Assembly (NCBI GenBank): GCA_963715985.1
Contig: CAVQSP010000011.1
Coordinates: 544,001-608,000 of the forward strand
Source: an uncultured Thermoleophilia bacterium
GTDB taxonomy: Bacteria; Actinomycetota; Thermoleophilia; UBA2241
Length of the DNA: 64,000 bases
Direction of reading: 5' to 3'
Below the pieces are notes generated by a model that saw nothing but the letters and a program-made list of their open reading frames with translations, was not told the DNA's origin and made no database searches. The translations under genes and the position numbers were made by a program. Of this stretch, positions 1 to 54,676 are shown piece after piece (positions within the stretch are counted from its first letter, which is position 1; the number at the start of each line of letters is the position of its first letter).

Positions 1-342
1 GCTCAATCCCACCGTGCCGTACACGAGCTCCACCCCGGCGGTGGGGCACATCGTGGCCCACTCGGCGTAGACGAAGCCGATCGGCAGGACGGCGATCATC
101 ATGAGACCGAAGCCGATGAACGTGAACGGGCCGGTGGTGGTGAGGAAGAAGCCGTCCCAGTACGCCATGAACGTGAAGATGGCGCCGGTGGCGATGGCGT
201 AGACGTAGAACAGGCGCAGGGACCTCTTGAGCGTGCCTGAGCCGGCGTAGTACTTGTCCCGCATCGCCAGCTCTTCGGCGGTCTCACCGGGCGACGCCGG
301 CACGTCCGCGTATTCTGACTTCTTGGTGGGCTCGTCTGCCAT
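1..342 (-). CDS. APC-family amino acid permease, N-terminal part (runs off window edge)
   Basis: My translation from ATG 342 (GGGGAC RBS upstream): MADEPTKKSEY...GTLKRSLRLFYVYAIATGAIFTFMAYWDG...IGFVYAEWATMCPTAGVELVY. The LKRSL...AIATGA and YAE...P-AG motifs are typical of APC permeases. Not in the ORF track because there is no stop in the window. Confidence 0.8.
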   Translation of the reverse strand, partial: MADEPTKKSEYADVPASPGETAEELAMRDKYYAGSGTLKRSLRLFYVYAIATGAIFTFMAYWDGFFLTTTGPFTFIGFGLMMIAVLPIGFVYAEWATMCPTAGVELVYGTVGLS

Positions 343-423
343 TTCATGTCCCCCGTTTCCGCGTGCCTGTGACCTGTCGGCGCCCGCGCCGGACGCCTCT
401 CACTCACACGTCGAGTCGGGCGA

Positions 424-1548
424 TCAGGCTGATACTCTGACCGCGATCTCCTCGTCATAGCCCGTCACCACGCGCATGTAGCCGGTCAGCATGGCGTTGG
501 TCTCCTCGCTGCCGGTGTCCACGAGCAGTGGCTTGCCGCCGAGGGCGGCGATCTTCTGTCTGGTCGCGACCACCGTGATGTGATCCCTGCCGACGCGCTG
601 GATGACGCGCGGGCTGAGCTGCTGGTTGCCGCGGCCGAAGATGTATCCCTGGCCGCCGATGACGGTGACGACGATCCTGGCCGGTGCGCCTCCTTTCGGC
701 CCGAGCAGGTCCAGGAGCTGGTGTTCTGTGACGTCGGCGGCGACCAGCTCGCGCCCGCGCGTGACGTCTACGCCGAGCAGCGTGCCGGCGATGCCGAGAC
801 GCCTCTTGATGCCGAAGACCGTGCTGCCCGTCCCGAGGAGGTAGAGCGTCTCGGGATCCATGCGGTCCATGAGGCGAAAGGCGATCGCGTCGAGCGCGTT
901 CTCGTCGGACGCGGTACGCCCCGCCTTGCCGCCCTGCACGCGGGCCTCGTCCCGGGGCACCGTGAGGTAGCCGAAGAGCTCGGCCGAGACGCGCCCCTGG
1001 CGGAACGCCTCCTCGTCGATGTCCATGACCTCGGCCTGCTTGACCTTGGTGACCTTGCCCTGCAGGTACAGGGCGGCCAGCTCGCCGGCGTTGCGCGGGT
1101 TGATGCCGTACACGCCGGAGTGGATCTTGCAGCCGGCCGGGACGCCGAGACACACGGCGTCGGGGCCGGCCGCTGCATACACGTCGCGGGCCGTGCCGTC
1201 ACCGCCCGCGAAGAGGATGAGGTCGACACCCGCCGCGGCCATCTCCGCGGCAGCGCGGCGGGTGTCGTCGCTCGTGGTCGTCTCACCGTTCGTGCCGAAC
1301 AGCACCGTGGGCGTGAAGCCGGCCGCGACGGCCTCGGCCTCGCCCATGTCTCCCGACACGGTGAGGATCTCGACGTCATCCCTGAGCGGCTCGAGCCGGC
1401 TCAGGGCCAGCTGTGCGCGGCCGGGCGCCTCGGGTTCGGCCCCGAGCGCGCAGGCCTGGGCCAGGATCTCGGCGCCGTCCGTGCCTTTGAGACCGCACCG
1501 GCCGCCCATGCCGGCGATGGGGTTGACGATGAGGCCGACCCGCTTCAC
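424..1548 (-). CDS. ATP-NAD kinase family protein (AcoX-like)
   Basis: VKRVGLIVNPIAGMGGRCGLKGTDG, GGDGTARD, GVPAGCKIHSGVY and GGQGYIFGRGNQQLSP motifs; GTG start just after the gcvPB stop. Confidence 0.85.
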   Translation of the reverse strand: MKRVGLIVNPIAGMGGRCGLKGTDGAEILAQACALGAEPEAPGRAQLALSRLEPLRDDVEILTVSGDMGEAEAVAAGFTPTVLFGTNGETTTSDDTRRAAAEMAAAGVDLILFAGGDGTARDVYAAAGPDAVCLGVPAGCKIHSGVYGINPRNAGELAALYLQGKVTKVKQAEVMDIDEEAFRQGRVSAELFGYLTVPRDEARVQGGKAGRTASDENALDAIAFRLMDRMDPETLYLLGTGSTVFGIKRRLGIAGTLLGVDVTRGRELVAADVTEHQLLDLLGPKGGAPARIVVTVIGGQGYIFGRGNQQLSPRVIQRVGRDHITVVATRQKIAALGGKPLLVDTGSEETNAMLTGYMRVVTGYDEEIAVRVSA

Positions 1549-1555
1549 GGCGCCG

Positions 1556-3121
1556 TCACGCGATCCCGTGCTTGCGCTTGTAGGCCCGCCACGTGGTGGC
1601 CCACTTCGTCGGGTCATCGAGCTCCTCTTCCGCGGAGCGCTTGTGCGCCGCGCACTTGTGCGGGGCGTTCTTGACGAACTCCGGGTCCTCGCGAGCCTCT
1701 TGCGCGATCTGCCGAAGCACGAGGGAGTACTCCTCGAGGTCCTCCTTGGAGAAGGTCTCGCAGGGCTCGATGGTCATCGGCTCGGGGACAACCCACGGGT
1801 GGTGGCTCGACCAGTAGTGCTGCAGGCCGAAGTCGCCGACGCGCCGCAGGATGTCGTCCGTGCCGACGCCGGTCTCCTCGGTGAGCTCCTGCCACGACCA
1901 GCGGCACTCCTCGAGGCGGCGATGGCCCTCGGCGTATGGATGCGTGAGGCCCGGGATGTCCTCGCACATCTTCATGAAGTAGTTGTTGTTGAGGGCCGAC
2001 ATCTCGGCCGTCTCCCTGAGGCCCTTGGGGCCCATCGTCACCGCCCAGGCGTAGGCCCTGAGGACCACGCCGGCGGAGCCCAGGAAGCCCTTGATCTTGC
2101 CGATGGACTCCGGGCGGTCGAAGTCGAGGTAGAAGCGGCCGCTGGCCGGGTCCTTCTCCACCACCGGGTAGGGCAGGTACTTGGCGAACTCCTCGCGGCA
2201 GCCCATGGCGCCGGTGCCCGGGCCGGAACCGGCGTGCGGGGTGCCGAAGGTCTTGTGGAGGTTGTAGTGGCAGAGGTCGAAGCCCGCGTCCCGCGTGCGG
2301 GCGATGCCCATGAGGACGTTGCCGTTGGCCTGGTCGTTGAAGCACACGGCCCCGGCCGCCTTGGCGACCTTGACGAACTCCTCGATGAGCGGGTTGTAGA
2401 TGCCGGTGTCCTCGGGGTTCGTGAAGAAGATGGCCGCCGTCTGCGGACCCACGACCGCCTTCATGGCCTCGAGGTCGGGGTAACCGTCCTCCTTGGGCAT
2501 CAGCGTGACGATCTTGTACCCCGCGGTGGCCGGGGAGGCCGCGTCGCAGGGGTGAGAGAACATGCTGGTGACGACCTCGGTGCGCTGGTCCCCCTCGCCG
2601 CGGTCACGGTGGTAGGCACGGATGATCGAGGCGGCGGTGAAGACGCCGTGGGCGCCGCCGCCGGGCTGCAGCGTGAAGCGGTCCATGCCCGACACGGCCT
2701 TCATGATCTGCTCGTGCTCCCAGTAGATCTCGAGGATGCCCTGCAGGGTCTCGTCGTCCTGCCACGGGTGCACGTTCGCGAAACGCGAGTACGCGACGAG
2801 GTCCTCGTTGATCCGCGGGTTGTACTTCATGGTGCAGGTGCCCTGGCTCATGTCGGCGTGCAGGTTGGAGCCGTTGGTCTCCTGCGAGAGGTGGAGGAAG
2901 TGGGCGAGCACGTGCTTCTGGTCGACCTCCGGCAGCGCCGGGGCCTCCGAGCGACGGATGCTCTCGGGCAGCCGGCCGGCCACGTCACCGACGGCGTCGA
3001 CGATCTCCGCGTCCGGCGCCGGCGGATACATGCCGCGGGTGCCGGGCGTGGACAGCTCGAAGATCATCGGCTCGTCCCAGCGAGCCTGGTGGTAGTTCTT
3101 GCGCACCTTCACGATGGCCAT
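1556..3121 (-). CDS. gcvPB: Glycine dehydrogenase (decarboxylating) subunit 2-like, divergent GcvPB
   Basis: QGTCTMKYNP, TLQPGGGAHG, TNPEDTG and the PLP-lysine motif HYNLHKTFGTPHAGSGPG; start overlaps the gcvPA stop at 3121. Confidence 0.85.
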   Translation of the reverse strand: MAIVKVRKNYHQARWDEPMIFELSTPGTRGMYPPAPDAEIVDAVGDVAGRLPESIRRSEAPALPEVDQKHVLAHFLHLSQETNGSNLHADMSQGTCTMKYNPRINEDLVAYSRFANVHPWQDDETLQGILEIYWEHEQIMKAVSGMDRFTLQPGGGAHGVFTAASIIRAYHRDRGEGDQRTEVVTSMFSHPCDAASPATAGYKIVTLMPKEDGYPDLEAMKAVVGPQTAAIFFTNPEDTGIYNPLIEEFVKVAKAAGAVCFNDQANGNVLMGIARTRDAGFDLCHYNLHKTFGTPHAGSGPGTGAMGCREEFAKYLPYPVVEKDPASGRFYLDFDRPESIGKIKGFLGSAGVVLRAYAWAVTMGPKGLRETAEMSALNNNYFMKMCEDIPGLTHPYAEGHRRLEECRWSWQELTEETGVGTDDILRRVGDFGLQHYWSSHHPWVVPEPMTIEPCETFSKEDLEEYSLVLRQIAQEAREDPEFVKNAPHKCAAHKRSAEEELDDPTKWATTWRAYKRKHGIA

Positions 3122-4514
3122 CAGAGGATCTCCTTCAAGCTGCCGACGAGTGCGTCCAGGTCGTCCTTGGTGTGGACCTCGGTCACGCAGTAGAGGGCAC
3201 TCTGGCCAAGTGCGGGGAACCACCCGGACAGGTCCTTGCCACCGAAGATCCTGCGCTCGAGCAGGGCGGCGTTGATGTCGGCGACCGTCTTGCCGGTGCC
3301 GTCAAAACCGACCACGAACTCCTTGAAGAACGGGCCCGAGAAGTGCGGCGCCTTGACGCCCGGGAGGGCCGCCAGCTGCCGGGCCAGATAGGCCGAGCGC
3401 TGCATGATGCCCTCGCCGATCTCCTTCATGCCCTGCGGGCCCATGAGCGAGAGGTACACGCCGGCGCCGATGCCGTGCAGCTGCGCCATGGTGCCGAGGA
3501 AGTCCTTGGCCTTCTCGCGGGACGCGTACCGAGGTGCGCTCGAAGAAGACCTCGCCGAAGCCGTACTCGCCCTCGACGATGGTCGGAGTGACGCCGAACA
3601 TCAGAGCGTTGAACTCGGCGAAGTACGTCGGGTCGTCCTGGGTGGCGATGAAGCCGCCCTGGCCACCGCCGCACTGCATGGGGATGCCGAGGCCCTGGAC
3701 GTCGCCGCAGGCGATGTCCACACCGTATCTCGCCGGGGCCTCGAGGACGCCGAGCGAGATGGGGTCGACGCCGGCGGCCACAACACCGCCCGCGCCGTGC
3801 ACGATCTCGGCGATGGCGGCCCCCTGATGCTCGATCACCCCGAGGAAGGAGGGGTTCTCGTAGTAGAACACGGCGACCTTGTCGGTCATCTTCTTCTTGA
3901 GGTCCTCGAGGTCGAGCAGGCCGGTCTCGGGGTCGTGCTCCACGGGCGTGATGGTGGGCACGGTGGACCAGGCGTAGTTGCGCATGCACGAGAGGCGGTC
4001 CGGGCTGATGACGGCCGAGACCAGGGCCTCGGAGCGCCCGTTGATGCGGGCGCCCATGCGGATGGCCGTGGCGGCCGCCATGCCCCAGTCGTAGGTGGGA
4101 GTGTTGACCGCGTCCATCTCGAGGAGCTCGGCCATGCAGCTGGCGTACTCGAACTGCGCCTGCCACTTGCCGTGATCGGCGTAGGCCTCACCCACGTAGG
4201 AGGTGAGGAACTCGTCGCGGCCCATGATGGTGGTGACCACCGAGGGCACGTAGTGGTTGTACACGCCGCCGCCGAGGAAGCCGATGTACTCCTTGCAGTC
4301 CTTGTTCTTGTCCAGCAGGCCCTCGACGTGCCGCCGCAGTGCGGCCTCCGAGGCGTAGGGGCCCGGCGTGTCGAGCTCGCCCTTGATACCGCAGGTGGTC
4401 GGGGATCTCGGCGAAGATGTCCTCGACGCTCGCGATCCCGACCGCGTCGAGCATCTGCTTCTTGACTGCCGGTACAGAGTTGGGGATGTACGGGAAGACT
4501 TCTGGATCAGTCAT
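3121..4514 (-). CDS. gcvPA: Glycine dehydrogenase (decarboxylating) subunit 1-like, GcvPA; frameshifts near 4385 and 3530
   Basis: Three pieces join into a full GcvPA: MTDPEVFPYIPNS...IPDHLR, FLGGGVYNHYVP...GIPMQCGGGQGGF, and HGIGAGVYLSLMGPQG...CVTEVHTKDDLD. Confidence 0.8.
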
Positions 4515-4693
4515 CAGCCCAGACCTCCACTGGTCGTTTGGCACGAGGGACGGGAAGAACTGCCTGAGGTGGCCTCCTCGATCGTGCGCAGCGCGCGGAT
4601 TGAGCGGTGGCGCACGTCCGGAGCGCTATGCGGGGGCTCTCCGGCGTGCGAAGTGCAATCCGCAGGATATGATTCCGATTCGGCGTTGCAAAC

Positions 4694-4747
4694 ATGGGTA
4701 GTTCATGGTTTTCTCCTGTGGCTGACCTATGAGTTCTCGCATGGGGC
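4694..4747. promoter_or_regulatory. Phased ATG(G/A)G-type heptamers, candidate LuxR/NarL-type binding sites in the divergent gcvPA/regulator promoter
   Basis: ATGGGTA 4694, ATGGTTT 4705, ATGAGTT 4729 and ATGGGGC 4741 in an AT-enriched patch; the first reads TACCCAT on the minus strand, matching the NarL heptamer. Confidence 0.35.
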
Positions 4748-4751
4748 CTGA

Positions 4752-6263
4752 ATGGATCCACAGCTCGCCGACATCCACGAGGCGCTGATCACCACGCTCG
4801 CCTGGCGGCGGGCGCCGGCTGCCGCGCTCGATCGGGAGACCGGCGTCCTGGTCGCGTCCAACGGGGACGGGCCGACCGGCGACGACGTCACGGCCGGCCT
4901 CCCCTCGCGCCTGTTCGAGTTCGGCGGCCTGCAGCTCCGCCTGGCCGCCGGGTCGCTCGCCACCAACGAGCCCGACCGCGAGATCCCATCCATCGTCACC
5001 GACACGATGCTGCGCCGCATCGTGGAGGCCCACTTCGCCGTGTGGTACGTGTGGCACGTACCCACCGGCGTGTGCATCGTGCCGGGCATGCGCGAGCTGC
5101 TGGACATCCCGCAGGAGGAGGTGCCGACCATCGTGGAGGACTGGCTGGGGCGCGTGCACCCCGACGACCTCCCCAGGATGGTGGCCGAGAACGACGAGGC
5201 GCTCCGCTCGACCTCACCCTTCCGCAGCGAGTACCGCTTCCGCCGCGGCGACGGCACCTACATCTCGATCAGCGACTGGGGCATCGTGCTGGCGGGGGCC
5301 GACGGCACGGCGGAGTGGATGGCCGGCGGCCTCCGCGACATCACCGTCGAGAAGTCACTGGAGCAGGCGCGCGAAGAGGCGGAGCGCCTGCGCGAGGTCC
5401 TCTTTCAGCACGCGCCGGTGCCGACGTTCCTCATCGACGGCGGCGGGGTGCTGGTCGACGCCAGCCAGTCGGCGCTGGACTTCCTGCAGGTGCGGCGCGA
5501 CGCGGTGGTGGGCCACCCCGCGGTGGAGATCCTGCCCGTCGAGCTCGTGGAGCGCACGCGCGCGCCGCACGCAGCCACCGCGCCGGACGACCTGCCCGGC
5601 GCTACCGAGGTGGACCTCGAGGTCGCGGGCGCCCGCAAGTGGCTGCTCGCCACCGTGGTGCCCTTCGCCGCCGGCGACGCCCAGATGGCCTTCGTCCTCG
5701 GGGCCGACGTGACCGAGCGCAGGCGCGCCGCGGAGGCACTCGCCGAGTCGGAGGCCTCGTTGCGCGAGAAGACGCTGGCCCTGGAGAAGCACAACGTGGC
5801 CCTGCGCGTGCTCATCGACCAGCGCCGCAACGACCTCGAGGAGCGGCGCCGCATCCTCGCCGAGAACCTGGAACAGCTCGTCTTCCCGACGCTCGACCGG
5901 CTCGCAGAGGCCTTCTCCGACCACGCCGAGGTGGCGCTGCTCGACGTGGTCCGTCAGACCCTCAACGAGATCGCCGATCCTCTGCTGGAGGCGCCCGGAG
6001 CCGGACTCGACCGCTCGCAGGGCCTGAGCCGGCGCGAGTACCAGGTCCTGCAGCTCGTGCGCGCCGGCAAGACGTCCGAGGAGATCGCGCGAGCGCTGTA
6101 CCTGTCGCCGACCACGGTCACCTTCCACCGCGGCAACATCCGCCGCAAGCTGGGCCTGCAGGGCAGCGGGGTGCGCCTCGCGTCGCGCGTCGCCGTGGAC
6201 TCACTCTCGCCGCTCCGGAAGTACGTACCGCCCACCGGGCTCGGCGACGAGCTGCCGGTGTAG
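4752..6263 (+). CDS. PAS/PAC-PAS-LuxR HTH transcriptional regulator
   Basis: VHPDD...EYRFRRGDGTYISISDWG...DIT (PAS/PAC), a second PAS ending DVTERR, a coiled coil, and the C-terminal LuxR HTH LSRREYQVLQLVRAGKTSEEIARALYLSPTTVTFHRGNIRRKLGL. Confidence 0.9.
   Translation: MDPQLADIHEALITTLAWRRAPAAALDRETGVLVASNGDGPTGDDVTAGLPSRLFEFGGLQLRLAAGSLATNEPDREIPSIVTDTMLRRIVEAHFAVWYVWHVPTGVCIVPGMRELLDIPQEEVPTIVEDWLGRVHPDDLPRMVAENDEALRSTSPFRSEYRFRRGDGTYISISDWGIVLAGADGTAEWMAGGLRDITVEKSLEQAREEAERLREVLFQHAPVPTFLIDGGGVLVDASQSALDFLQVRRDAVVGHPAVEILPVELVERTRAPHAATAPDDLPGATEVDLEVAGARKWLLATVVPFAAGDAQMAFVLGADVTERRRAAEALAESEASLREKTLALEKHNVALRVLIDQRRNDLEERRRILAENLEQLVFPTLDRLAEAFSDHAEVALLDVVRQTLNEIADPLLEAPGAGLDRSQGLSRREYQVLQLVRAGKTSEEIARALYLSPTTVTFHRGNIRRKLGLQGSGVRLASRVAVDSLSPLRKYVPPTGLGDELPV
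5911..6203 (+). repeat. Copy 1 of a ~290 bp duplicated LuxR-HTH segment (copy 2 at 7988-8280)
   Basis: CCTTCTCCGACCACGCCGAGGTG... starts at 5911 and at 7988; identical for about the first 110 bp, then synonymous differences. Confidence 0.9.
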
Positions 6264-6341
6264 TCCCGGCCGCACCCGGCGTGGCGCACCCGGCGGAGGG
6301 TCAGGGCTGCCGACGCGGCTGCGCCGGACCCCGGCGGCACG

Positions 6342-7109
6342 TCACGGCGACGCCGGACTGCCCACGGGCAGCAGGTACAGCGGCTCCTCGCCGAAGCCGA
6401 GCTCGAGGACCAGACCCACGGCGTGGTCGTCGAAGGCGCCTGTCGGCACCGCTCCGAGGCCCAGAGCCACAGCCTGCAGGCACACGTTCTCGGCGGCGTG
6501 GCCGGCCTCGAGGACGACGTAGCGGCGCCCGCGCTCGCCGTACTTCGCGGTCGTGCGAGAGAAGACAGCCGTGAGCGCGAGTGTGAGCGGCGCGGCCCCT
6601 ATCGCGGGCTGAGAGAGCGCCGCGTCGCACAGCCGCCGGCTGACCGGCTCCTCGGTCACGAGCTCCAGCCCGTGGCTCTCCGGGATGTAGCGGTAGACCC
6701 CGGGTGGCAGTCCCGCCACCCGGGAGACGGCTGCGTAGACCTCCAGCGGATAGAGCGCGCCGGCGGAGGGCGCGGTGCGCAGACCGCCGGCCGGCTGGGT
6801 GATCCCCTGCGCCGCCCACAGCAGCTGTCCGAGCTGGGTCAGCGTGAGCGGCGCGGCGGCGAACTCGCGCACCGACCTCCGCCGATACAACGCCTCTTCG
6901 AGCGACATGAGACCGCTCGCACGCGGCGACGGCAGGACCACGAGGCGCCGGGCAGGTGCGGTCGGAGTGACCACCGGGACAGCTTCCTGAGAAGGCCGGC
7001 CGGGAGACGCGCCGCCGGTGGAGAGCTCGCCGCACGAGGTCGCACCGAGAGGCACGGCGAGACTGACCGCCACGAGAAGCGTCAGGCCCGCGACGTGCCG
7101 GAGTCGCAC
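6342..7109 (-). CDS. SagB/ThcOx-family nitroreductase-like dehydrogenase with possible lipoprotein signal; start uncertain (7109 or 7175)
   Basis: SLEEALYRRRSVREF, LLWAAQGIT, RTAPSAGALYPLE, EAGHAAENVCLQA; N-terminal hydrophobic stretch ending LGATSC. Confidence 0.85.
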   Translation of the reverse strand: MRLRHVAGLTLLVAVSLAVPLGATSCGELSTGGASPGRPSQEAVPVVTPTAPARRLVVLPSPRASGLMSLEEALYRRRSVREFAAAPLTLTQLGQLLWAAQGITQPAGGLRTAPSAGALYPLEVYAAVSRVAGLPPGVYRYIPESHGLELVTEEPVSRRLCDAALSQPAIGAAPLTLALTAVFSRTTAKYGERGRRYVVLEAGHAAENVCLQAVALGLGAVPTGAFDDHAVGLVLELGFGEEPLYLLPVGSPASP

Positions 7110-7397
7110 GCCACCCGCGGCCGCACCCGGCGAATGTCCCCGACCCTCGCCGCCCCGTGCCGCCGTCGCGCCCATGGTGCCTCCCGCCGCACGAGGCCGG
7201 GCGCCGCGGTGCCGCGGAATCGCCGACGGTACGGCTGCCTGCAAGGTGCCCCGCACGAAAGCGACCAAACCGATGGGCCCCTGGCCGGCCTAGGCAACAT
7301 GCTGCCACGCCCCGCAGATGCGAGGCTCGCTGCAGCGACGTCGCGCGGCGCCGGCATGAGCGCACGCGCGGGGAACCCTGGATGCTGGAGGACCGCC

Positions 7398-7988
7398 ATG
7401 GCCATTCTGCTCGACTCGGCATCACTCGACGACGCGGCCGCGGCGGCCGGGCTCGGGTTCGTGCGAGGCATCACGACGAACCCCGCACTCATGGCGAAGG
7501 AGACGAAGGAGCCGCTGGCGCACCTCGAGCGGCTCCTCGCCGCCTTCCCCGAGGGCCCGATCTGCTACCAGCCGACGCGCACGTCCTACGAGGAGATGGA
7601 CCGTGAGGCGCGAGCGGCGGCGGCCCTCGCGCCCGACCGCGTCGTCGCCAAGCTGCCCGCGACCCTGGACGCCGTCCGGCTGGCCGGCGCACTCCGCGCC
7701 GACGGCTTCCGCCGCGCCCTCACCGCCGTCTACGCGCCGGCGCAGGCGCTGCTGGCGCACGAGACCGGCTGCGTCTGGATCATCCCGTACGTGGACCGGG
7801 CGGCGCGCCACTCCGCCGGCCGCGTGGTGGAGGACCTGGCGGCGGTGCTTGCGAGTCTGCGCAGCAGCACCCGCATCCTCGCCGCCAGCCTCAAGACCTC
7901 ACGGCCGGTCGTGGACGCCGTGCTGGCCGGCGCTCAGGACGTCACCGCGCCGCTCGACGTCATCCGCGCCCTACCAGCGCACCCGCTC
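7398..7988 (+). pseudogene. fsa: Fructose-6-phosphate aldolase/transaldolase-family gene, copy 1, truncated at 7988 by the LuxR-tail duplicate
   Basis: GGAGG RBS; MAILLDSAS...GITTNP...VVAKLPAT...TAVY...PYVDR...LAASLK...PAHPL, then an abrupt switch to regulator sequence. Lacks the last ~14 residues present in copy 2. Confidence 0.8.
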
Positions 7989-8340
7989 CTTCTCCGACCA
8001 CGCCGAGGTGGCGCTGCTCGACGTGGTCCGTCAGACCCTCAACGAGATCGCCGATCCTCTGCTGGAGGCGCCCGGAGCCGGACTCGACCGCTCGCAGGGC
8101 TTGAGTCGGCGCGAGTACCAGGTCCTGCAGCTCGTGCGCGCCGGCAAGACGTCCGAGGAGATCGCGCGAGCGCTGTACCTGTCGCCGACCACGGTCACGT
8201 TTCACCGCGGCAACATCCGCCGCAAGCTGGGCCTGCAGGGCAGCGGGGTGCGCCTGGCCTCGCGGGTGGCGGTGGACTCGGTGGTCGCGCCGTGGCAGCG
8301 CGCCGCGCGCGGTGCGCTGGACGGCGACCTGCCGGCGTAG
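7988..8340 (+). pseudogene. 3' fragment of a second PAS-LuxR regulator (HTH only, no start)
   Basis: FSDHAEVALLDVVRQ...LSRREYQVLQ...RKLGLQGSGVRLASRVAVDS, followed by a different tail (VVAPWQRAARGALDGDLPA*). Confidence 0.8.
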
Positions 8341-8481
8341 TTCGCGGCGAGTCGGGCGCGAGGGCGAGCAGCGCTTGAAGCGCCGCCTCCCGCGTGCGAC
8401 GCTGACGTGGTCGGAGCGGGGCCGCCGCGGGCGGCCCCGCTCCGACCGGCAGACGACCAGCGGACAGGTGGGAGACAGAAG

Positions 8482-9117
8482 ATGGCGGTGTTGCTCGATT
8501 CAGCGTCCCTGGACGACGCGGTGGCGGCCGCGCAGCTCGGCTTCGTGCGCGGCATCACCACGAACCCGGCGCTGATGGCGAAAGAGACCAGGGAGCCGCT
8601 GGCGCACCTCGAGCGGCTCCTCGCCGCCTTCCCCGAGGGTCCGATCTGCTACCAGCCCACGCGCACGTCCCCGGCGGAGATGGAGTCCGAGGCGCGAGCC
8701 GCGGCGGCCCTCGCGCCCGACCGCGTCGTCGCCAAGCTGCCGGCCACGCTGGACGCCATCACCCTGGCCGGCGCCCTGCACGAGGACGGCATCCGCTGCG
8801 CCCTCACCGCCGTGTACTCGCCGGCGCAGGCGCTGCTCGCGCACGAGACCGGCTGCGTCTGGGTGATCCCCTACGTGGACCGCGCGGCGCGGCACTCCGC
8901 GGGCCACGTGGTGGAGGAGCTGGCGGCGATGCTGGCGAGCCTGCACAGCGGCACGCGCATCCTCGCCGCCAGCCTCAAGACCTCACAGCAGGTCGTGGAC
9001 GCCGTGCTGGCCGGCTCCCAGGACATCACGGCGCCCCTCGATGTGATCCGCGCCCTGCCGGCGCACCCGCTCACGGAGTCGGCCGTGAACGAGTTCGCGG
9101 CGCACTGGGAGAGCTAG
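8482..9117 (+). CDS. fsa: Fructose-6-phosphate aldolase (FSA-type transaldolase family), intact copy
   Basis: GITTNP; CYQ (Gln rather than the transaldolase Glu); Schiff-base Lys in VVAKLPAT; TAVY and PYVDR carry the Tyr of the FSA APYVNR motif rather than transaldolase SPFVGR; HPLTESAVNEF. Confidence 0.85.
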   Translation: MAVLLDSASLDDAVAAAQLGFVRGITTNPALMAKETREPLAHLERLLAAFPEGPICYQPTRTSPAEMESEARAAAALAPDRVVAKLPATLDAITLAGALHEDGIRCALTAVYSPAQALLAHETGCVWVIPYVDRAARHSAGHVVEELAAMLASLHSGTRILAASLKTSQQVVDAVLAGSQDITAPLDVIRALPAHPLTESAVNEFAAHWES

Positions 9118-9121
9118 CGCC

Positions 9122-10105
9122 TCACCTCCACGCCGGCTGGCCGCCCGCCGTGAGCTTGTGCTTGCCGGAGCCGTCGGCGTTCATGATCCACAGGGTCTGC
9201 CACCCCTTGGCGTAGACGACCTTCGCCCAGTCCGGCGAGTAGCGGGCGACGCCCACCCCAGGCGGACCCTGCCAGCCGCCGCCGGTGGCCAGCGTGCGGA
9301 TCACGGTGCCGCTCAGCTTCGTCTGCTTGATGCTCGTCTTCGACTGCGTGGCCACGGAGAGGAGCACCGACTGCCCGTCGGCCGCCCAGTCGGCCGTGGA
9401 GGCCTCGGCCACGGGGATCTTCTTCGTGGCCCCGCTGATGATGGTGTACACCCACGTGCCGCCGCCCTCGGCGTCCTGACCCTGCTGCGCGATGAGGATG
9501 GCCGAGCCGTCGGGGGACCAGGAGAGGCTCCACGCCGTCACGATGGAGTGACCGAAGCCCCCGTTCTTCTTGAGCATCACGGACGTCCTGCCCGACGCGA
9601 CGTCGATGATGACGAGCCTGGTGCCGACCGGCGTCGCACCCCTGGCCGAGTACACGTCGGCGAACGCCAGCTTGGTGCCGTCCGGGGAGTAGGCGAGCCC
9701 CGTGACGTCGATGTAGCTGACCTTGGGGATGCTGTCGCGATAGAACACCGTCGCGGCGCCCCCCTCGGCCGGGACCGTGTAGATCGTGGACACCTTGCTC
9801 GACGACCCCTGCCGCACGAAGGCGATGGTGCTGCGGTCGGGCGACCAGGCGGGCGTGCCGTCCTCGACCTTGCCGCTCGTGAGCTGCTTGAGACCGGTGC
9901 CGTCGGGCGAGACCTTCCAGATGTGGTCGCCCCTGACGAAGGCGATGGCCGCTGCGGGAGCCGCGGCGCCATGCGCCGGCGTCATGGGCCGCGCAAGGGC
10001 CGACGGGGCCAGGGCCAAGCGCGGACGCAAAGAGCAGAAGGGCGGCGCCCGACGAGCGACACGCCGGCCGCCGCGCTCACACTGCCGGAAGAAGAGACCG
10101 TTCAC
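9122..10105 (-). CDS. TolB-like/PD40 beta-propeller secreted protein
   Basis: Repeated PAWSPD, AYSPDG, SWSPDG and RYSPDW blades plus WIMNADGSG; the signal-peptide region looks garbled by indels. Confidence 0.8.
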   Translation of the reverse strand: MNGLFFRQCERGGRRVARRAPPFCSLRPRLALAPSALARPMTPAHGAAAPAAAIAFVRGDHIWKVSPDGTGLKQLTSGKVEDGTPAWSPDRSTIAFVRQGSSSKVSTIYTVPAEGGAATVFYRDSIPKVSYIDVTGLAYSPDGTKLAFADVYSARGATPVGTRLVIIDVASGRTSVMLKKNGGFGHSIVTAWSLSWSPDGSAILIAQQGQDAEGGGTWVYTIISGATKKIPVAEASTADWAADGQSVLLSVATQSKTSIKQTKLSGTVIRTLATGGGWQGPPGVGVARYSPDWAKVVYAKGWQTLWIMNADGSGKHKLTAGGQPAWR

Positions 10106-25754: not shown

Positions 25755-26631
25755 CTACCGGAGGCTGCCCGCCCCCGGGAAGGACCTGTACCAGACGATG
25801 CTCTCTCCTTCGCTCAGCCCCGAGACGATCTCCGACTGGCTGCCGGACTGCTGCCCCACCTGGACGGTGCGGTCCTGAGTCGTGCCGTTGGCCAGCACCT
25901 GCACGGTGGCAGAGCTGCCGCTGCCCGTGATGGCGGCGGTCGGGATCACGATGACGTTGGCGGCCAGGACCTTGGTCTCGATCGCCGCGAAGCCGATGGA
26001 ATCGGCGGCGGCGTCCGCCGGCGTCTCGTCGAGACGGATGGTGGCGGAGGCCGTGCCGTCGGCGTTGGTCTTGACCGCCGTGACCGTGCCGGGCGTCCCG
26101 CGGTCGCCGAGGTCGCCGCCGGGGAAGCCGCCCTGAGGCATGCCGCTCGGGCCGGGCTGGGGCATGCCGCTGCCTTGGGGCACGGGCATGCCGCTCGCCG
26201 CCCTGGGGCACGGGCATGCCGCTCCCCTGCGGGACCGGCATGCCACTCTGGCCGGGCTGCGGGAGGCCGCCCTGCGCGCCGTTGAACAGGAGCACGGTCG
26301 CGGTCTGCCCGGCGGCCACGGAACCGGCGCTCTCGGCCGGCACGGTGGCGACGACGATGGTCTTGTCTCCGAGAGACGTCACCTTGACCGGCGCGGCGAC
26401 GCTCTGCGTCAGGTCGCCGCGCTCGACCTCGGTCAGGACCTGCATGGCGGTGGGCATCACCTGTCCGGGCTGGGCGGCGGCGTTCTGCGAGCCGCTGCTC
26501 GAGCCGCCGCAGGCGCCGGCCAGCACGGCGACCGCCGCCACCGCCGTCACCGCAGCGGCCACGGAGATGGACATCTTCAGTCTGCGCCCGCCCTCGCGGA
26601 GCCCAGAACGACGGCGGTGTGCAGGATTCAT
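25755..26631 (-). CDS. Second, short adaptor-like lipoprotein (frameshift near 26200; 3' end may extend to ~25703)
   Basis: Lipobox VLAGAC; VERGDLTQSV; GMPVPQG repeats; VIVIPTAAI...VQVGQQSGSQSEIVSGLSEGESIV adaptor C-terminus. Confidence 0.7.
26137..26263 (-). repeat. Five ~24-bp coding tandem repeats (SGMPVPQG / SGMPQPGP)
   Basis: GGCATGCC at 26137, 26161, 26185, 26213 and 26237. Confidence 0.85.
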
Positions 26632-27360
26632 ACGTGAGCCTCCGCGTACGTCGCGTGATCGTGAAGCTTGCCTTCGCCGAGCACGAGCCGTCTGTCGGCG
26701 TGCTCGGCCACGTCTTCTTCGTGCGTGATCATGAAGATGGTGCGGCCCTCGCCGTGGAGACGGTCGAGGATCTCGAGCACCTCGGCGGTGGCGGCCAGGT
26801 CGAGGTTGCCCGTGGGCTCGTCCACGAGCAGCAGCTCGGGGTCGCCGACCAGCGCCCGGGCGATGGCGACGCGCTGCATCTGCCCGCCCGAGAGCTCGCC
26901 GGGGTCGTGGTCGGCGCGGTCCTCGAGGCCCACGGCCACCAGCGCCTCGCGAGCCCGCTCGAGACGCTCTTTGCGCCGGATGCCCCGGTACACGAGGGGC
27001 GTGGCGACGTTCTCGAGGGCGGTGGTGCGCGGGAGCAGGTTGTGAAGCTGGAAGACGAACCCGAGCAGATGGTTGCGCAGCCGCGAGCGGTCGCTGTCGT
27101 CGAGGTCGGAGACGTCGTGCCGCTCCGAGCAGGTACTCGCCGGCATCGGCGCGATCCAGCAGTCCGAGGACGTTGAGCAGGGTCGACTTGCCGGAACCCG
27201 AGCGGCCCGTGCAGGCGACCCACTCCCCTCGCGTCACGCGGAGGTCGAGGTCCCAGAGCACCGGCACGGCGATCTCACCGCGACGGTAGGTGCGCTCGAT
27301 GCCCGTCGCCTGCATGACGACGTCGTCTTCTCCGCCGGCGGCGGTCCCGTCCAGGCCCAT
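26628..27360 (-). CDS. ABC transporter ATP-binding protein, LolD/MacB type (frameshift near 27125)
   Basis: Walker [20 protein letters not shown], signature [15 protein letters not shown], Walker [16 protein letters not shown]. Confidence 0.9.
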
Positions 27361-29866: not shown

Positions 29867-31231
29867 CTAACTGTGCGCCCGCCCCGGCGCCAGCAGCTCC
29901 GCCACCTGGAAGGCGACGTCGAGGGACTGGCGCGCGTTGAGGCGAGGGTCGCAGAGCGTGGAGTACCGCGAGCAGAGCTCGCTCTCGGAGATGAAGTCGG
30001 CGCCGCCCACGCACTCGGTGACGTCGTCGCCGGTGAACTCCAGGTGCACGCCGCCGGGCCACACGCCCTGGGCGCGGCACACCGAGAAGAAGCCGCGCAG
30101 CTCGCGCATGATGTCGTCGAAGCGGCGCGTCTTCATGCCCTCGTCGGTCATCAGGCCGTTGGCGTGCATGGGGTCGCAGGTCCACACCACGGGGTGGCCC
30201 GACTCCTTCACGGCCCTCACCAGCGGCGGCAGGAGCTCCTCCACGCGATCGGCCCCGAGACGGGCGATGAGCGTCATGCGCCCGGGGTCGCGGTCCGGGT
30301 CCAGGCGGTCGCAGAGGGCCACCACCTCGTCGGGAGTGGCCGCCGGCCCGAACTTGCAGCCGACGGGGTTCTGCACGCCGGCGAGGAACGCGACGTGGGC
30401 GTCGTCCAGACCTCGCGTGCGCTCGCCGATCCAGAGCAGGTGGGCCGAACAGTCGTACCAGCGGCCGGTGAGGCTGTCCCGGCGCGTCAGGCACTCCTCG
30501 TAGGGCAGCACGAGACCCTCGTGGCTCGTCCACAGGTCCACTTCGTGCAGCGTGCGCTCGCGCTCCAGGTCGATGCCGATCGCCGTCATGAAGCGAAGGG
30601 CGTCGTCGATGCCGCGCGCGATGCCCTCGTACCGGCGCCCCTCGGGTGAGCCGGCCACGAACTCCTGGTTCCAGAAGTGCACCTGGGTGAGGTCGGCGAA
30701 GCCGCCCTTGGTGAAGGCGCGCAGCAGGTTCAGCCGCGCGGCGGACTGGTTGTACGCCTGCAGCATGCGCTCGGGGTCGGCAACGCGCGCCTGCGCGTCC
30801 GGAGCGTCGTCGTTGACCATGTGGCCGCGGAACGAGGGCAGCTCGAGATCGCCGACACGCTCCGTAGGGCTGGAGCGCGGCTTGGCGAACTGCCCGGCCA
30901 CGCGCCCGAGTTTGACCACCGGCAGCGCCGCGCCGTAGGTGAGCACCGTCGCCATCTGCAGCATGATCTTGAGGTTGTCGCGGATGCGCGGCGCGGTGAG
31001 GTCGCGGAACGACTCGGCGCAGTCGCCCACGTGCAGCAGGAAGGCACGGCCGGCGGCGACGTCCGCCAGGGCGGCGCGGAGCTGGCGGGACTCCCCCGCG
31101 AACACGAGCGGGGGCAGCGCCCTCAGCCGGGTGAGGACATCTTCCAGGGCGGCCTGGTCGGGCCAGTCCGGCTGCTGCTTGGCCGGCCGCTCACGCCACG
31201 ATCCCGGGGTCCACTCCGCGCCTGTCTCCAC
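29867..31231 (-). CDS. Class II DAHP synthase (3-deoxy-7-phosphoheptulonate synthase)
   Basis: LPPLVFAGE, GDCAESF, GRVAGQFAKPRS, WTSHEGL, LWIGERTR, CDPMHAN, CDPRLN. Confidence 0.95.
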   Translation of the reverse strand: METGAEWTPGSWRERPAKQQPDWPDQAALEDVLTRLRALPPLVFAGESRQLRAALADVAAGRAFLLHVGDCAESFRDLTAPRIRDNLKIMLQMATVLTYGAALPVVKLGRVAGQFAKPRSSPTERVGDLELPSFRGHMVNDDAPDAQARVADPERMLQAYNQSAARLNLLRAFTKGGFADLTQVHFWNQEFVAGSPEGRRYEGIARGIDDALRFMTAIGIDLERERTLHEVDLWTSHEGLVLPYEECLTRRDSLTGRWYDCSAHLLWIGERTRGLDDAHVAFLAGVQNPVGCKFGPAATPDEVVALCDRLDPDRDPGRMTLIARLGADRVEELLPPLVRAVKESGHPVVWTCDPMHANGLMTDEGMKTRRFDDIMRELRGFFSVCRAQGVWPGGVHLEFTGDDVTECVGGADFISESELCSRYSTLCDPRLNARQSLDVAFQVAELLAPGRAHS

Positions 31232-31431
31232 CCTGCAGCTCTCCCTTCGCCGCCACGCGAGCGTCCCCGCCGGCGCCGGCGTCCGATAGATCGTCGGCGA
31301 ACGTGCGCGGCGGCACCCGCCGCCGCGCACCACTCACCTGTCAATGATAGCGCGCTCAGCGCAGCTCGTTCGCGGCGCCGCAGTGGCGGTCGCGGCCCCG
31401 GGCCGTCAAGCGGCCCACAGCCACGCCTGAC

Positions 31432-31618
31432 TCAGCGCTGGTCGCAGAGCTCGCCGCCCTCGGCCCAGTCGCTCTTCGGATAGTCGTCGAAGACGATGGA
31501 CACCGCCGGCTTCGGGCAGCCGACGACCTCGACCATGATGTCCGTCGAACCGCCGAGCCAGCTCGGCCTTCTGCTCACGGGTCCTGCCTTCCCAGAGCTT
31601 CACTTCGATGATGGGCAT
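31432..31618 (-). CDS. 4-oxalocrotonate tautomerase family protein (single-base insertion near 31545)
   Basis: AGGAAGGAG RBS; corrected MPIIEVKLWEGRTREQKAELARRFTDIMVEVVGCPKPAVSIVFDDYPKSDWAEGG with N-terminal catalytic Pro. Confidence 0.85.
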
Positions 31619-31658
31619 GGCACGCTCCTTCCTCAGGGGATGTGTCGGATCTCGAGCT

Positions 31659-33111
31659 TCACTGCCCCCGCCCACGTAGGCGTCCACCAACTCGTCCACG
31701 ACACCCCGCAGGTCGGCCGGCAGCGGCTCCGGCTCGTGCGTCGCGAGGATGTCCAGAGCCTTGTGCCGCGCCTTCCGGCGCAGGTCCGGCGACCCCTCGG
31801 CCTCCCAGTGCGCGCGGGTCACGCGATTGAACAGGGTGGGTCTCCACTGCAGCGCGCGGGCGTGCCGCCGGGTGTGCCGGCTGCGCAGGAAGTCGCCGCC
31901 CGGGCCCGCGGCGGCGATCACCTCGACGGCCAGCGTCTCCTCGTCCACCTCGATGCCCTCCAGGGCGCGGCGGTTCATCGAGATGATCTCGTCCACGATG
32001 ACGACCATCTCGGGCGCACAGGTGAGTCCGAAATCCAGGTAGCCGATGTCGTGGTTGAGGTTCGAGCCTGCCTGCATCGAGAGCAGGGTGACCTGCGCGG
32101 CGTCGATGCCCGCCTGGGTGTCCACGCACTGCGCGTCGCTGGTGCCGGCGAAGTTCCAGTTGGGGATGTCAAGCCACTTGGCCATCTCGATGATGCCGAG
32201 GTCGGTGGTGTACCGCTCGGCCGCGTTGTACAGCGTCTGCAGGGTGACCATGTCGAGCTTGCCCGACGCCGACCCGAAGATGAACGGCGCCCCGGGGCGC
32301 CTGAGCTGATGGACGACGAGCCCGAACAGCGATTCCGCCGTTCCCTGTGCGATCTGCCCGGCGTGCGTGATCGGCGACGTGGCGCCGGCAATCGGAGCCG
32401 GCGCGTAGATCAGCGGGATGCCCCGGTCGGCGCAGAAGAGCAGCTTGTCGAGGACCTCGACGGGATGCACGAGCGGGCTCACGGGCTCGCCGTACTGGAT
32501 GAAGTACGGCTTGGCGCGCAGCTCAGCAGCGCCGCCGCGCAGTGCGCAGGCGATCTGCCACATGACCTCGAGGTCCTCGACGCCCTCGGCCGTCATCACC
32601 ATGGGCTTGGTGGTGTTCGTCACCATCGCGCGGAAGCTCTCGAGGTAGGCGGCGCGCGCGTCTACGTCGTGCGGGTAGGCGCTGGACATCACGAAGTCGA
32701 TGTTGGGGAGGCCGTCGCACAGGCGCGCCATGCGGGCGACGTCGGCGAGAACACTGAGGCGGCGCTCGCCGGACTCCAGGTCGTAGGTGTTCATGAGGTC
32801 CGAGCCGGTGCCGAAGTAGGCGTTGCGGCCGCCGAGCTCCATGGCGGGCTCGCCGCCGCGGTCGTACACCGGGATCGAGGCCGGGACCGTGCGCCGCGCC
32901 TCCGCGACGAGCTCGCGCGGGATGCGCACGAGGTCACCGCTCACCACGCGAGGCGCCGGCGTCCACGAGCAGCCGGCGCGCCGTTCTCCTGCGGCACCGT
33001 CATTCCCACGTCCGCGATGACCGTGAGCGCGGCGTCGTAGATGGCCCGGCACTTCTCGTCGGTGAGCACGGCCATCCGGCCGCTGAGCCCCGGGGCGTGC
33101 GACTCGATCAT
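31659..33111 (-). CDS. Trimethylamine methyltransferase (MttB) superfamily protein, non-pyrrolysine; indels near 32950-33000 and at the 3' end
   Basis: LTDEKCRAIYDAALTVIADVG, FGTGSD, EPVSPL, GATSPITHAG, QLRRPGAPFIFG, AGTSDAQ, NLNHDIGYLDFG, GPGGDFL; ATGA overlap with the upstream decarboxylase. Confidence 0.85.
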
Positions 33112-34584
33112 GCTGTCTCCTTCTCTGGGCCGGCGGCGCCGGCGACACGTACACCCAGGCGCCGCAGCGTCTCCGCGACGTCCTCGCCGGTCGTGCGCGG
33201 GTTGATGGTGCAGAGGCGCAGCACCGGCTGATCGCGCACCCAGGTCGTGGTGAGGTGCGCGAAGCCGGCCGCGGCCAGCGCGTCGGCGCGGCGCTTGTGC
33301 TCCTCGTGCTCCGCGCCGCGCAGGGCGAACGTGACGATGCCGAGCCGCGCGGGTGTCACGACCTGCCAGCGCGGCGTCGCCGGCCACGAGGCGCTCGGCC
33401 TGCTCGGCGAGGCCGATGCCGTGCGCCACGGCCTCGCGCAAGCGAGCCACGCCGTGGATGCGAAAGGTCAGCCAGAGCTTGAGGCCGCGCGCGCGCCGCG
33501 TGAGCTCCAGACTGCGGTCACGCATGTCGACCTCTTCCCCGGCGCCGGTGACGTCGGCAAGGTAGTCCGGGCTCATGTGGAAGGCCCGCGCGAGAGCCCC
33601 GGGCCGGCGCACCAGCAGGCAGCCGAGGTCGTAGGGCTGGAAGAGCCACTTGTGCGGGTCGACGACGAGTGAGTCGGCCTGCTCGATGCCCTGCAAGGCG
33701 CGGCGGCCCGGCTCGCAGAGCGCCGCCGCCGCGCCGTACGCGCCGTCCACGTGGAACCACAGACCCTCGGCCAGGCACAGCTCGGCGATGCCGGGGAGCG
33801 GGTCCACGGCGCCGGTGTTGGTGGTGCCGGCGTTGGCGATCACCAGGGCCGGGCGCCGGCCGGCCGCGCGGTCTTCGCGGACCGCGGCCGCCAGCGCCTC
33901 CAACGGCAGACGCAGCTGCTCGTCCGTCGGCAGGGTTCGCACCTGCTCCGGCGCGAAACCCAAAGCCGGGAGGCCGCGCGTGATCGAGGCGTGTGCCTGG
34001 TCGGAGAGGTAGCACACGCCCGGCCCCACGCTGACGCGCGCCGCGGCGACGGCGGTGATGTTGGCCATCGACCCGCCGCTCAGCATCACCCCTTCAGTGC
34101 CCTCCGGCATGCCCAACAGCGTGCGCAGCCAGTCGAGCGCCACCAGCTCCACCGTAGCGGGGCCGGAGCCGCCGCCCCACGAAGCGGCGATGGCGTTGAA
34201 GCCGGTACCGAGCCAGTCGCCGAGCACGCCGGCGAAGGACGACGGCCCCGGGACCCGCGCGAAGTTGCGGGGGTGGTCGCCGTGCTGCATGTTGGCGAGC
34301 GCGACGCCGGTCAGGGCCTCGAGCGCCGCCAGCGGGTCGCCGCCGTGTTCCGGCGGCGGGCCACCCAGGGCGGCGCGGAGATCCGCCGGCGCGCCCGTCG
34401 TGATGGACGGCCCGTCGGCGACGCCCTCGAAGTGCTCGACGACGCGGTCCACGACCCAGTAGCCCAGCTCGCGCATCTGGGCGGCGTCGAGACCCAGCGT
34501 GTCCGCGGCCCGCGGCAGCGGGACGCGACGGTCGCCCGGATCACTTCCCTGACGCCGATCCTTGCCTTCGCCCGCTGCGCTCAC
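33108..34584 (-). CDS. Group II PLP-dependent decarboxylase (aromatic amino acid/glutamate decarboxylase family; frameshift near 33365)
   Basis: HPRNFARVP, SGGSMANITA, AGTTNTGAVDPL, WFHVDGAYG, PLP-Lys DPHKWLFQPY, ELTRRARGLKLW, LRLCTINPRTT. Confidence 0.9.
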
Positions 34585-34711
34585 GCGTTCCTCCCCTGTG
34601 TCGCTCTCGCCGCGGCGATACTAGCCCTTCGGACCACCCCTGGGCATACTCCCCGCGCGAGCCGCACGAGGGTCGGATGGCGCGCGAGCGGCCTCCGGCT
34701 GCGTTGCTCCG

Positions 34712-54561: not shown

Positions 54562-54676
54562 CGTTCCCTCCCCGACGGCGTCCCACCGCAGATGGGCCGC
54601 AATGCAGCCCCTCCAGCGGCCCTATCGAAACAGTGGTTCTCGCCCTTCAGGGCGCGAATGCGCGAGCTCCGTTCTG

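Follow-up and report, generated by a model that had tools for sequence, protein, structure and literature searches.

What does a pair of genes resembling the two subunits of the glycine-cleavage P-protein (GcvPA and GcvPB) do in an operon with a NAD-kinase-like gene and an amino acid permease, and with a regulator of its own? The question arises at the left end of a 64,000-nt stretch of DNA, hereafter the window (G000:C11:544001-608000; G+C ~71%), from an uncultured Thermoleophilia bacterium, a soil or wetland actinobacterium whose draft genome comprises 4.35 Mb in 22 contigs (completeness 88.8%, contamination 7.3%). A first-pass annotation of the first 9 kb had read the region as a catabolic system in which a non-canonical P-protein acts together with a kinase-like protein and an FSA-type aldolase on an imported amino acid or amino-sugar acid. 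Our analysis supports that interpretation in part: the non-canonical P-protein with a kinase-fold partner stands, and the aldolase and sugar-acid part does not. We consider it probable, on balance, that the locus is a member of a widespread, uncharacterised sister lineage of P-proteins, pyridoxal phosphate (PLP)-dependent alpha/beta pairs, that works with the kinase-fold protein.

Organization of the operon

The operon lies on the minus strand, opposite its regulator, with the following features (window coordinates).

About 1185-2000 bases left of the window, minus strand: short-chain dehydrogenase/reductase (SDR) gene, downstream of the permease (adh_short_C2, 8.4e-66; L007:10000-10815(-))
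1..342, minus strand: N-terminus of an APC permease, 114 codons (Pfam AA_permease_2, 1.5e-30 on the full open reading frame, L007:10852-12342(-))
427..1548, minus strand: NAD-kinase/diacylglycerol (DAG)-kinase-fold protein, 374 aa, GTG start (PF01513, PF20143, PF00781)
1559..3121, minus strand: gcvPB-like gene, 521 aa, intact PLP subunit (NF003346, 517.8 bits)
3124..4514, minus strand: gcvPA-like gene in three frames, pieces ~4401-4514, 3518-4390 and 3124-3510 (NF001696, 270.2 and 106.9 bits)
4515..4751, no strand: divergent intergenic region of 237 bases between the gcvPA-like gene and the regulator
4752..6260, plus strand: PAS-PAS-LuxR (GerE) regulator, 503 aa (GerE 3.2e-16, PAS_3 4.5e-13, PAS_4 1.6e-10)

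Matches to Pfam and NCBIfam models bear out the minus-strand order of permease, NAD-kinase-fold gene, gcvPB-like gene and gcvPA-like gene that had been read from the letters, and the divergent regulator, with two PAS domains and a GerE domain, faces the operon as described. Neither gcvT nor gcvH occurs in the window, again as annotated, and the genome's only matches to them are on other contigs. The ATG of the gcvPB-like gene overlaps the stop codon of the gcvPA-like gene by one base, and the start codon of the kinase-fold gene lies 8 bases past the gcvPB-like stop. The position of the gcvPA-like gene as the first of the operon stands, but the gene is not one open frame. Left of the window, where reading on had been advised, the permease gene (497 aa in all) is completed over ~1.15 kb and is followed by the SDR gene, and the operon runs beyond the window edge. 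Orthologues of the permease in genomes G064 and G056 are 89-90% identical, with gene order kept; against the NCBIfam models for amino-acid and ethanolamine permeases, the protein scores far under the cut-offs. A scan of 4300-4900 detected no sigma-70-like or terminator-like site in the intergenic region, other promoter types being outside its reach. Here and below, G-labels (G050, G056, G064, G019, G022) denote genomes and L-labels denote loci; the genus comparison covered 54 genomes.

A canonical glycine cleavage set elsewhere in the genome

The first-pass annotation had suggested a check for a second, canonical gcvTHP locus, and one was found: gcvH-gcvPA-gcvPB lie on contig C13 and gcvT on C10, both units behind glycine riboswitches (64 bits upstream of gcvH, 54.8 bits upstream of gcvT). 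No glycine riboswitch was detected in the window's first 12 kb (Rfam, E up to 1), nor any at the gathering score in the orthologous locus of G056 or in the genome's own second variant locus. An Rfam match to HCV_SL1412 at 9215-9256 (E 0.0098, under the gathering score) was taken as chance.

The second variant module, on C13, consists of an SDR, PA, PB and a kinase-fold gene, which brings the P-protein systems of this genome to three: the canonical one and a pair of variant modules from different subclades. The GcvPA-like and GcvPB-like parts of that second module lie in one 1178-codon frame (G000:C13:126738-130271; L032:6738-10271), which is either a fusion or the product of a stop codon lost through an indel. 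In each of the five named genomes that carry a variant module, a canonical gcvT-gcvH-gcvPA-gcvPB is present too. In these five genomes, canonical copies score 672-789 bits against NF003346 and variants 513-577; the model's cut-off of 441 admits both clades, so the window protein bears the canonical database name. The earlier claim that the pair is not the housekeeping glycine decarboxylase is upheld by the canonical set elsewhere, by the separate clade into which the pair falls, and by its rebuilt active-site segments.

A sister clade with rebuilt active-site segments

A phylogeny of the P-protein subunits had been proposed as a check, and it places the window pair outside the canonical clade. 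In this quick maximum-likelihood tree of GcvPB (66 rows, arbitrary root; three rows removed as duplicates or partial), the 13 canonical rows stand on one side of a branch with Shimodaira-Hasegawa-like approximate likelihood ratio support (SH-aLRT) of 100, and the window row stands opposite with 51 others. Its group contains G064, G056 and G050, then Bariatricus massiliensis, a Chloroflexota metagenome-assembled genome (MAG) and Clostridium sp. Cult2. The second variant copy carried by the same genome lies far away in the tree, so that the two modules are either old paralogues or were separately acquired.

The shifted GcvPB motifs that the first-pass annotation had pointed out are present in the window protein and differ from those of the canonical copy in this genome (SYPLGSCTMKYNP and HFNTHKTFSTPHGGGGPG). 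Comparing 13 canonical with 49 variant rows, we found 63 columns conserved alike in both, the PLP lysine K290 included, and 11 columns conserved differently (canonical>variant: E>Q68, S>T95, A>S189, G>P191, T>D238, L>T239, G>Q264, P>A305, A>N379, V>R407 and A>P448). Most of these changes replace a small or apolar residue by a polar or charged one (G>Q264, A>N379, V>R407, T>D238). The canonical segment set (YPLGSCTMK, AHGTNP, TNPNTLG, DGAN, PHGGGGPG, HPPT-x-YFP) is absent from the window protein as a set, with the GxCTMK core kept, and the canonical HPPT-x-YFP segment reads HYWSSHHPW. Within its SHHP core, S439, H440 and P442 are invariant across 33 variant rows, and H441 is found in at least 90%. 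The other subunit is altered as well: the GcvPA loop YTPYQPExSQG (YTPYQ(P/A)ExSQG) is replaced in variants by the one-residue-shorter Y-x-G-x-x-Y-x-DHGK, which reads YVG-EAYADHGK in the window. Four residues of the human P-protein (Y161, Y164, T894 and W897) are labelled as active site in one source (PMC7259800); mapped through the alignment to 1wyt_B, these residues would correspond to parts of the rebuilt GcvPA and GcvPB segments.

Among solved enzymes, the pair is closest in kind to the GcvPA/GcvPB P-protein of Thermus thermophilus (EC 1.4.4.2, PDB 1WYT), with which it shares the split alpha/beta architecture, nearly full-length similarity (1wyt_B, 1.9e-93), the PLP lysine, the G-x-CTMK motif and the translational coupling of the two genes. 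Unlike that enzyme, it has rebuilt loops in both subunits and belongs to a separate clade, and its locus lacks an adjoining gcvT or gcvH and a glycine riboswitch and has a kinase-fold gene directly downstream.

The kinase-fold partner

The product of 427..1548 matches PF01513 (1.4e-18), PF20143 (2.3e-18) and PF00781 (1.2e-5) and no NCBIfam model, and a Protein Atlas search with it returned its own family only. That family comprises at least 8000 proteins at E up to 1e-10, and its GGDGT motif is invariant in 16 relatives. A structural model of the whole protein has a mean predicted local distance difference test score (pLDDT) of 85.9. In VIA-align comparisons, the N-terminal part resembles NAD kinase 7qvs (Z 11.6, root-mean-square deviation 3.3, 135 residues aligned) and DAG kinase 2qvl (Z 11.2). 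Residues 225-374 (window 427-876), modelled alone, form an alpha/beta domain with pLDDT 93, for which Foldseek returned no match at E up to 0.001 and the best VIA-align Z was 5.4. PF20143 matches the sequence, yet NAD kinases are absent among the best 50 VIA-align rows for this modelled domain. Subunits of eIF2B, ribose-5-phosphate isomerase (RpiA) and DeoR effector domains were rejected as C-terminal relatives, with Z of 4.8-5.4 under the meaningful level. These weak top rows are all sugar-phosphate-binding folds.

The protein is thus like NAD kinases (NadK/PpnK) and DAG-kinase/YegS-type lipid kinases in its N-terminal alpha/beta GGDGT domain and unlike them in that only ~120-135 of its residues align, its C-terminal 150 aa being modelled as alpha/beta where solved NAD kinases have a beta-sandwich, although PF20143 matches. 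AcoX presumably also has an NAD-kinase fold. As described in PMC10107126, AcoX (acoXABC) is a protein of unknown function that likewise stands beside an alpha/beta decarboxylase, one that passes its product to a lipoyl arm.

The kinase-like protein had been proposed to act alongside the P-protein, and in the wider sample its gene is a conserved partner. In 80 loci from species genomes that were fetched via the kinase-fold protein, a design from which the reverse frequency (GcvPB-like gene to partner) is not derivable, a GcvPB-like gene lies within 3 kb of the kinase-fold gene in 45 and further off in 2. The carriers include Bacillota, Chloroflexota, Acidobacteriota and Synergistota as well as Bathyarchaeota, Heimdall-, Thor- and Hadarchaeota. 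All seven variant GcvPB genes of the five named genomes have a kinase-fold gene at most 7 kb away, six of them at most 1.5 kb away, and two of the seven copies were found independently of the kinase-fold gene. Within the genus, 39 of the 54 genomes match the kinase-fold protein at E up to 1e-60; the window type (at least 72% identity) occurs in five, this one included.

A predicted complex of the GcvPB-like and kinase-fold proteins

Structure prediction of the GcvPB-like protein with the kinase-fold protein gave a complex score of 0.81, compared with 0.00 for the best of three controls. Of 157 solved complexes, 116 reached the mark applied, as did 2 of 215 mismatched pairs; the counts are rough because the alignments were our own. 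At least 76% of contacts are shared between runs, with partner pLDDT of at least 80. No solved relative of the kinase-fold protein was found by sequence, so the prediction is unlikely to have passed from a memorised complex. The predicted interface joins GcvPB-like residues 187-223 and 442-445 to partner residues 330-371, and in the model the C-terminal strands of the partner (356-371) pair with K203-P209 of the GcvPB-like protein. Judging from what is known of the aminotransferase fold, K203-P209 would be an exposed edge strand of the PLP-domain sheet. The strand is conserved in 46 variant rows (K 87%, T206 83%, P209 98%) and variable in the 13 canonical rows.

The model supports binding of the kinase-fold protein to the GcvPB-like protein, of which it would be a third subunit, and suggests that it may be involved in the reaction and not just a neighbour. 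A stronger version, in which the kinase-fold protein is an obligate third subunit of a complex that would phosphorylate a hydroxylated amino compound and then decarboxylate or cleave the phospho-intermediate without H-protein, seems to us doubtful.

Proposed function

We propose that, in this genus, the permease, the P-like pair with its kinase-fold protein and two SDRs may together import and break down a non-glycine amino compound under the control of the PAS-LuxR regulator. The more polar pocket, together with the kinase-fold protein bound in the model, would point to a substrate larger than glycine and carrying a hydroxyl or phosphate group, and we infer that it is probably a hydroxylated or phosphorylated amino compound other than glycine, which the SDRs would oxidise or reduce. 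If it is hydroxylated, as is probable, the hydroxyl could be oxidised by the SDRs, phosphorylated by the kinase-fold protein, or both, and the PLP enzyme would then decarboxylate or cleave the resulting compound. When 408 open reading frames around 43 module loci were clustered, only SDRs recurred widely (19 loci in the strict cluster); the other neighbours are patchy, with M20 deacylases at 7 loci, ABC ATPases at 6, and SBP_5 proteins, saccharopine-dehydrogenase-like proteins and class III aminotransferases at 5 each.

The regulator, fsa and local rearrangement

Right of the regulator, the window carries the following genes.

6345..7289, minus strand: nitroreductase-family gene (PF00881, 1e-28; core domain roughly 6345-6940)
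7401..7988, plus strand: truncated fsa-like copy, 196 codons (TIGR00875, 120.2 bits)
~7967..8283, plus strand: duplicated 3' fragment of the regulator (LuxR helix-turn-helix part), 94% nucleotide identity to 5890-6189
8482..9114, plus strand: full-length FSA-type short transaldolase-family protein, 211 aa (TIGR00875, 143.2 bits)

The regulator has orthologues that are divergent from the operon in G056 (79% identity) and G064 (71%) and was found at none of the 80 distant loci, which makes it a lineage-specific control. Both G056 and G064 keep the order PA-PB-kinase-fold-APC-SDR-SDR with the divergent regulator; the full layout in G056 is SDR2-SDR1-APC-kinase-fold-PB-PA, a divergent regulator-fsa pair, and then a PD40 gene. 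Compared with G056, the window genome has the SDR2 segment inverted and a nitroreductase gene behind the regulator, where it sits between the full regulator gene and the truncated fsa; the G056 protein (68% identity) is encoded ~12 kb away beside a radical-SAM/B12 gene. The regulator-fsa unit is partly duplicated, 7967-8266 repeating 5890-6189 at 94% and 7398-7697 repeating 8482-8781 at 85%. The annotation had placed an fsa gene behind the regulator in both duplicated variants. There are indeed two TAL_FSA genes, but the "second regulator" is a C-terminal fragment of about 100 residues, with 97% protein identity to regulator residues 386-485. The truncated fsa, 87.7% identical to the full copy, lacks the last ~15 residues and continues out of frame into this fragment. 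Both fsa genes, like the nitroreductase gene and the repeated piece of the regulator, reflect a local rearrangement and probably do not belong to the pathway.

The full FSA protein has its best PDB matches in 3r8r (1.5e-29) and 1l6w (2.1e-23) and falls under the TIGR00875 cut-off (143.2 vs 245.95 bits). It carries D6, N28, Q58, K85, T109 and Y131, with Gln58 and Tyr131 where 3r8r has Glu and Phe; Glu and Phe at these positions mark transaldolases. The FSA active-site set is given as Asp6, Asn28, Gln59, Lys85, Thr109 and Tyr131 in PMC13259622. The protein is like the fructose-6-phosphate aldolases and short transaldolases (E. coli FSA, 1L6W; B. subtilis, 3R8R) in its length of 211 aa, its full-length match and the presence of the active-site set, and unlike them in having Ile rather than Ala at position 129 and in staying below the family cut-off.

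Further left, ~6.9-11.4 kb from the window edge, one frame (L007:621-5090) contains Dak2 (DhaL), EIIA-man, HPr and enzyme I domains, that is, a phosphotransferase system (PTS)-dependent dihydroxyacetone kinase set. FSA acts on sugar phosphates and releases dihydroxyacetone. The fsa gene may belong with these kinase genes rather than with the P-like operon.

Two single-base insertions in the gcvPA-like gene

Relative to its three orthologues (G056, G050 and G064), the gcvPA-like gene of the window carries an extra C at ~3529 and an extra T at ~4387. The gene is in a single frame in G056 and G050, and the G064 copy has two frame changes at other places. In short-read contigs from related strains, one base is missing at 3529 in three of four runs and at 4387 in two of four. 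No sequencing run contained half or more of the sampled words (best share 0.35); since the contigs come from related strains, ~95-96% identical, they do not decide between an assembly error and true extra bases. Each insertion gives rise to the pentamer TACCG (TACG to TACCG, and AACCG to ATACCG). This pentamer occurs 4486 times in the genome (1.03 per kb), and other frame switches lack it. With so many genomic copies, rpoB and rpoC intact, and switches elsewhere that do not involve it, systematic error at TACCG was rejected as a general rule. We regard it as likely that the two insertions are consensus errors, and as considerably less likely that they represent a real and very recent inactivation.

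Other features of the window

In the rest of the window, genes for a class II 3-deoxy-D-arabino-heptulosonate 7-phosphate (DAHP) synthase, an MttB-family methyltransferase (PF06253) and a group II PLP decarboxylase (PF00282) stand in a row on the minus strand at 29870-34620. The methyltransferase and decarboxylase frames overlap by ~400 bases, which may reflect another indel. At 26631-27233 (minus strand) and 53995-54621 (minus strand), matches to a partial ABC ATPase and a partial MMPL protein begin or end inside a domain, a sign of gene remnants or of additional breaks in frame.

Alternative explanations

Several observations weigh against the reading of the locus as a P-like pair working with a kinase-fold partner. 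No P-like gene was found in the sampled DNA of 33 of the 80 kinase-fold loci, 7 of these loci being shorter than 9 kb, and some members of the kinase-fold family are encoded in unrelated settings, such as next to EpmC in gammaproteobacteria. A third subclade of variant P-like pairs in this genus has no nearby kinase-fold gene (L034, L035:12932 and L036; G022 and G019), and in a Hodarchaeaceae MAG (L117, 7105-11107) a GcvPA/GcvPB pair of canonical type stands directly before a kinase-fold gene; with its canonical loops and its canonical side of the tree, this pair indicates that the partner is not strictly tied to the variant clade. The tree itself is a quick version with an arbitrary root. In the complex prediction the two proteins were folded as a pair without GcvPA-like, and the surface used for docking in the model might not be free once the tetramer has formed. 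The SDRs match generic NCBIfam models only, homologues of the window SDR occur in just 20 of 45 module loci, and nothing was found that would identify the substrate. Finally, because the gcvPA-like gene is broken here, the window copy may have no function at all. Apart from these points, we observed that the kinase-less subclade L034/L035/L036 still keeps the edge strand K-x-x-T-x-x-P.

The similarity of the window protein to canonical enzymes, namely its score above the NF003346 cut-off and the 63 shared columns, makes it possible that glycine is the substrate and that the genome's single H-protein is used. Taken further, this would make the pair a simple second glycine decarboxylase isozyme under other regulation, feeding that H-protein, with the kinase-fold gene an unrelated neighbour. 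The conserved PLP lysine and the nearly full-length match to 1wyt_B would fit such an isozyme, yet we judge it improbable: the pair forms a separate clade, the active-site segments are rebuilt in both subunits, the window locus lacks the glycine riboswitch that both canonical units have, the variant is always extra to the canonical set in the five named genomes, the kinase-fold neighbour is conserved across phyla, and the complex prediction passes while its controls do not. A biosynthetic role, in which the module would make an amine, amino alcohol or phospho-amine, for instance for a cofactor or lipid head group, has precedents in pairs of a kinase and a PLP decarboxylase, such as threonine kinase with threonine-phosphate decarboxylase in cobalamin synthesis, and the kinase-fold family is also found alone in housekeeping-like contexts. 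It is nevertheless hard to credit when neighbours are mostly for uptake and catabolism (APC, SSF and ABC transporters, M20 deacylases, aminotransferases and sensor regulators) and when only 5 of the 54 genomes in the genus carry the window type, a patchy distribution. Least credible to us is the original proposal, in which an imported amino acid, sugar-derived or hydroxylated, is decarboxylated by the P-like enzyme and its carbon skeleton is then split by the FSA-type aldolase. An fsa gene does stand behind the regulator both here and in G056, its product carries the FSA-type residue set, and the PTS-type dihydroxyacetone kinase lies ~7-11 kb left of the window. Against this, of the kinase, APC permease and fsa whose co-occurrence was to be surveyed, the kinase was found with the P-like gene at 45 of the 80 related loci and fsa at none. 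Of the two close loci with enough flank, the one in G056 has fsa, and the one in G064 showed none over a distance of 9 kb. One of the window's two fsa copies is truncated, and no sugar-handling gene is conserved with the module, although FSA acts on sugar phosphates. A link between the aldolase and the P-protein pathway is not supported by these loci, and nothing was found that points to a sugar-derived or amino-sugar-acid substrate.

It is also possible, although we hold it unlikely, that the module is a dead relic in this organism, with real insertions in a locus that is decaying and rearranged. Two lesions within one 1.4-kb gene would be unlikely at a rate of about one per 8 kb, and rpoB and rpoC, which lie 65 kb away on this contig and together span ~8 kb of coding sequence, each form one open frame; the extra T at 4387 lies outside any homopolymer, the G064 orthologue has its own two frame changes, and the rearrangements relative to G056 (the inverted SDR2 segment, the moved nitroreductase, the duplicated regulator and fsa fragments) could all be signs of decay. 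Frame switches are, however, common in this assembly (four by scan plus the one at 4387 in ~13.8 thousand aligned residues, with none real in G056), and they also split the canonical gcvPA (C13:84833-86230) and the second kinase-fold gene (C13:130307-131522) between two frames. The gcvPA-like pieces contain no in-frame stop and are 85-92% identical to G056, comparable to the GcvPB-like protein (94%), the kinase-fold protein (87%) and the permease (90%), and the TACCG shared by both insertions hints at a context-dependent consensus artefact. The P-like pair working with the kinase-fold protein is thus the reading that we favour for the lineage, with the reservation that the window copy may be inactive in this genome.

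Implications

We found no paper on the P-like/kinase-fold module, most subscription journals being outside the reach of our search. What is added here is the riboswitch contrast between canonical and variant loci, the predicted complex, and the state of this particular locus. Thousands of public genes named "glycine dehydrogenase subunit" or "ATP-NAD kinase family protein" form a separate conserved module, and metabolic reconstructions that count them as glycine cleavage or as NAD kinase are probably wrong. If the complex does phosphorylate and then decarboxylate or cleave a hydroxylated amino compound, the result would be a new class of enzyme, masked by the name "glycine dehydrogenase" and distributed from Clostridia to Asgard archaea; by analogy, it might show what AcoX-like proteins do next to other alpha/beta decarboxylases.

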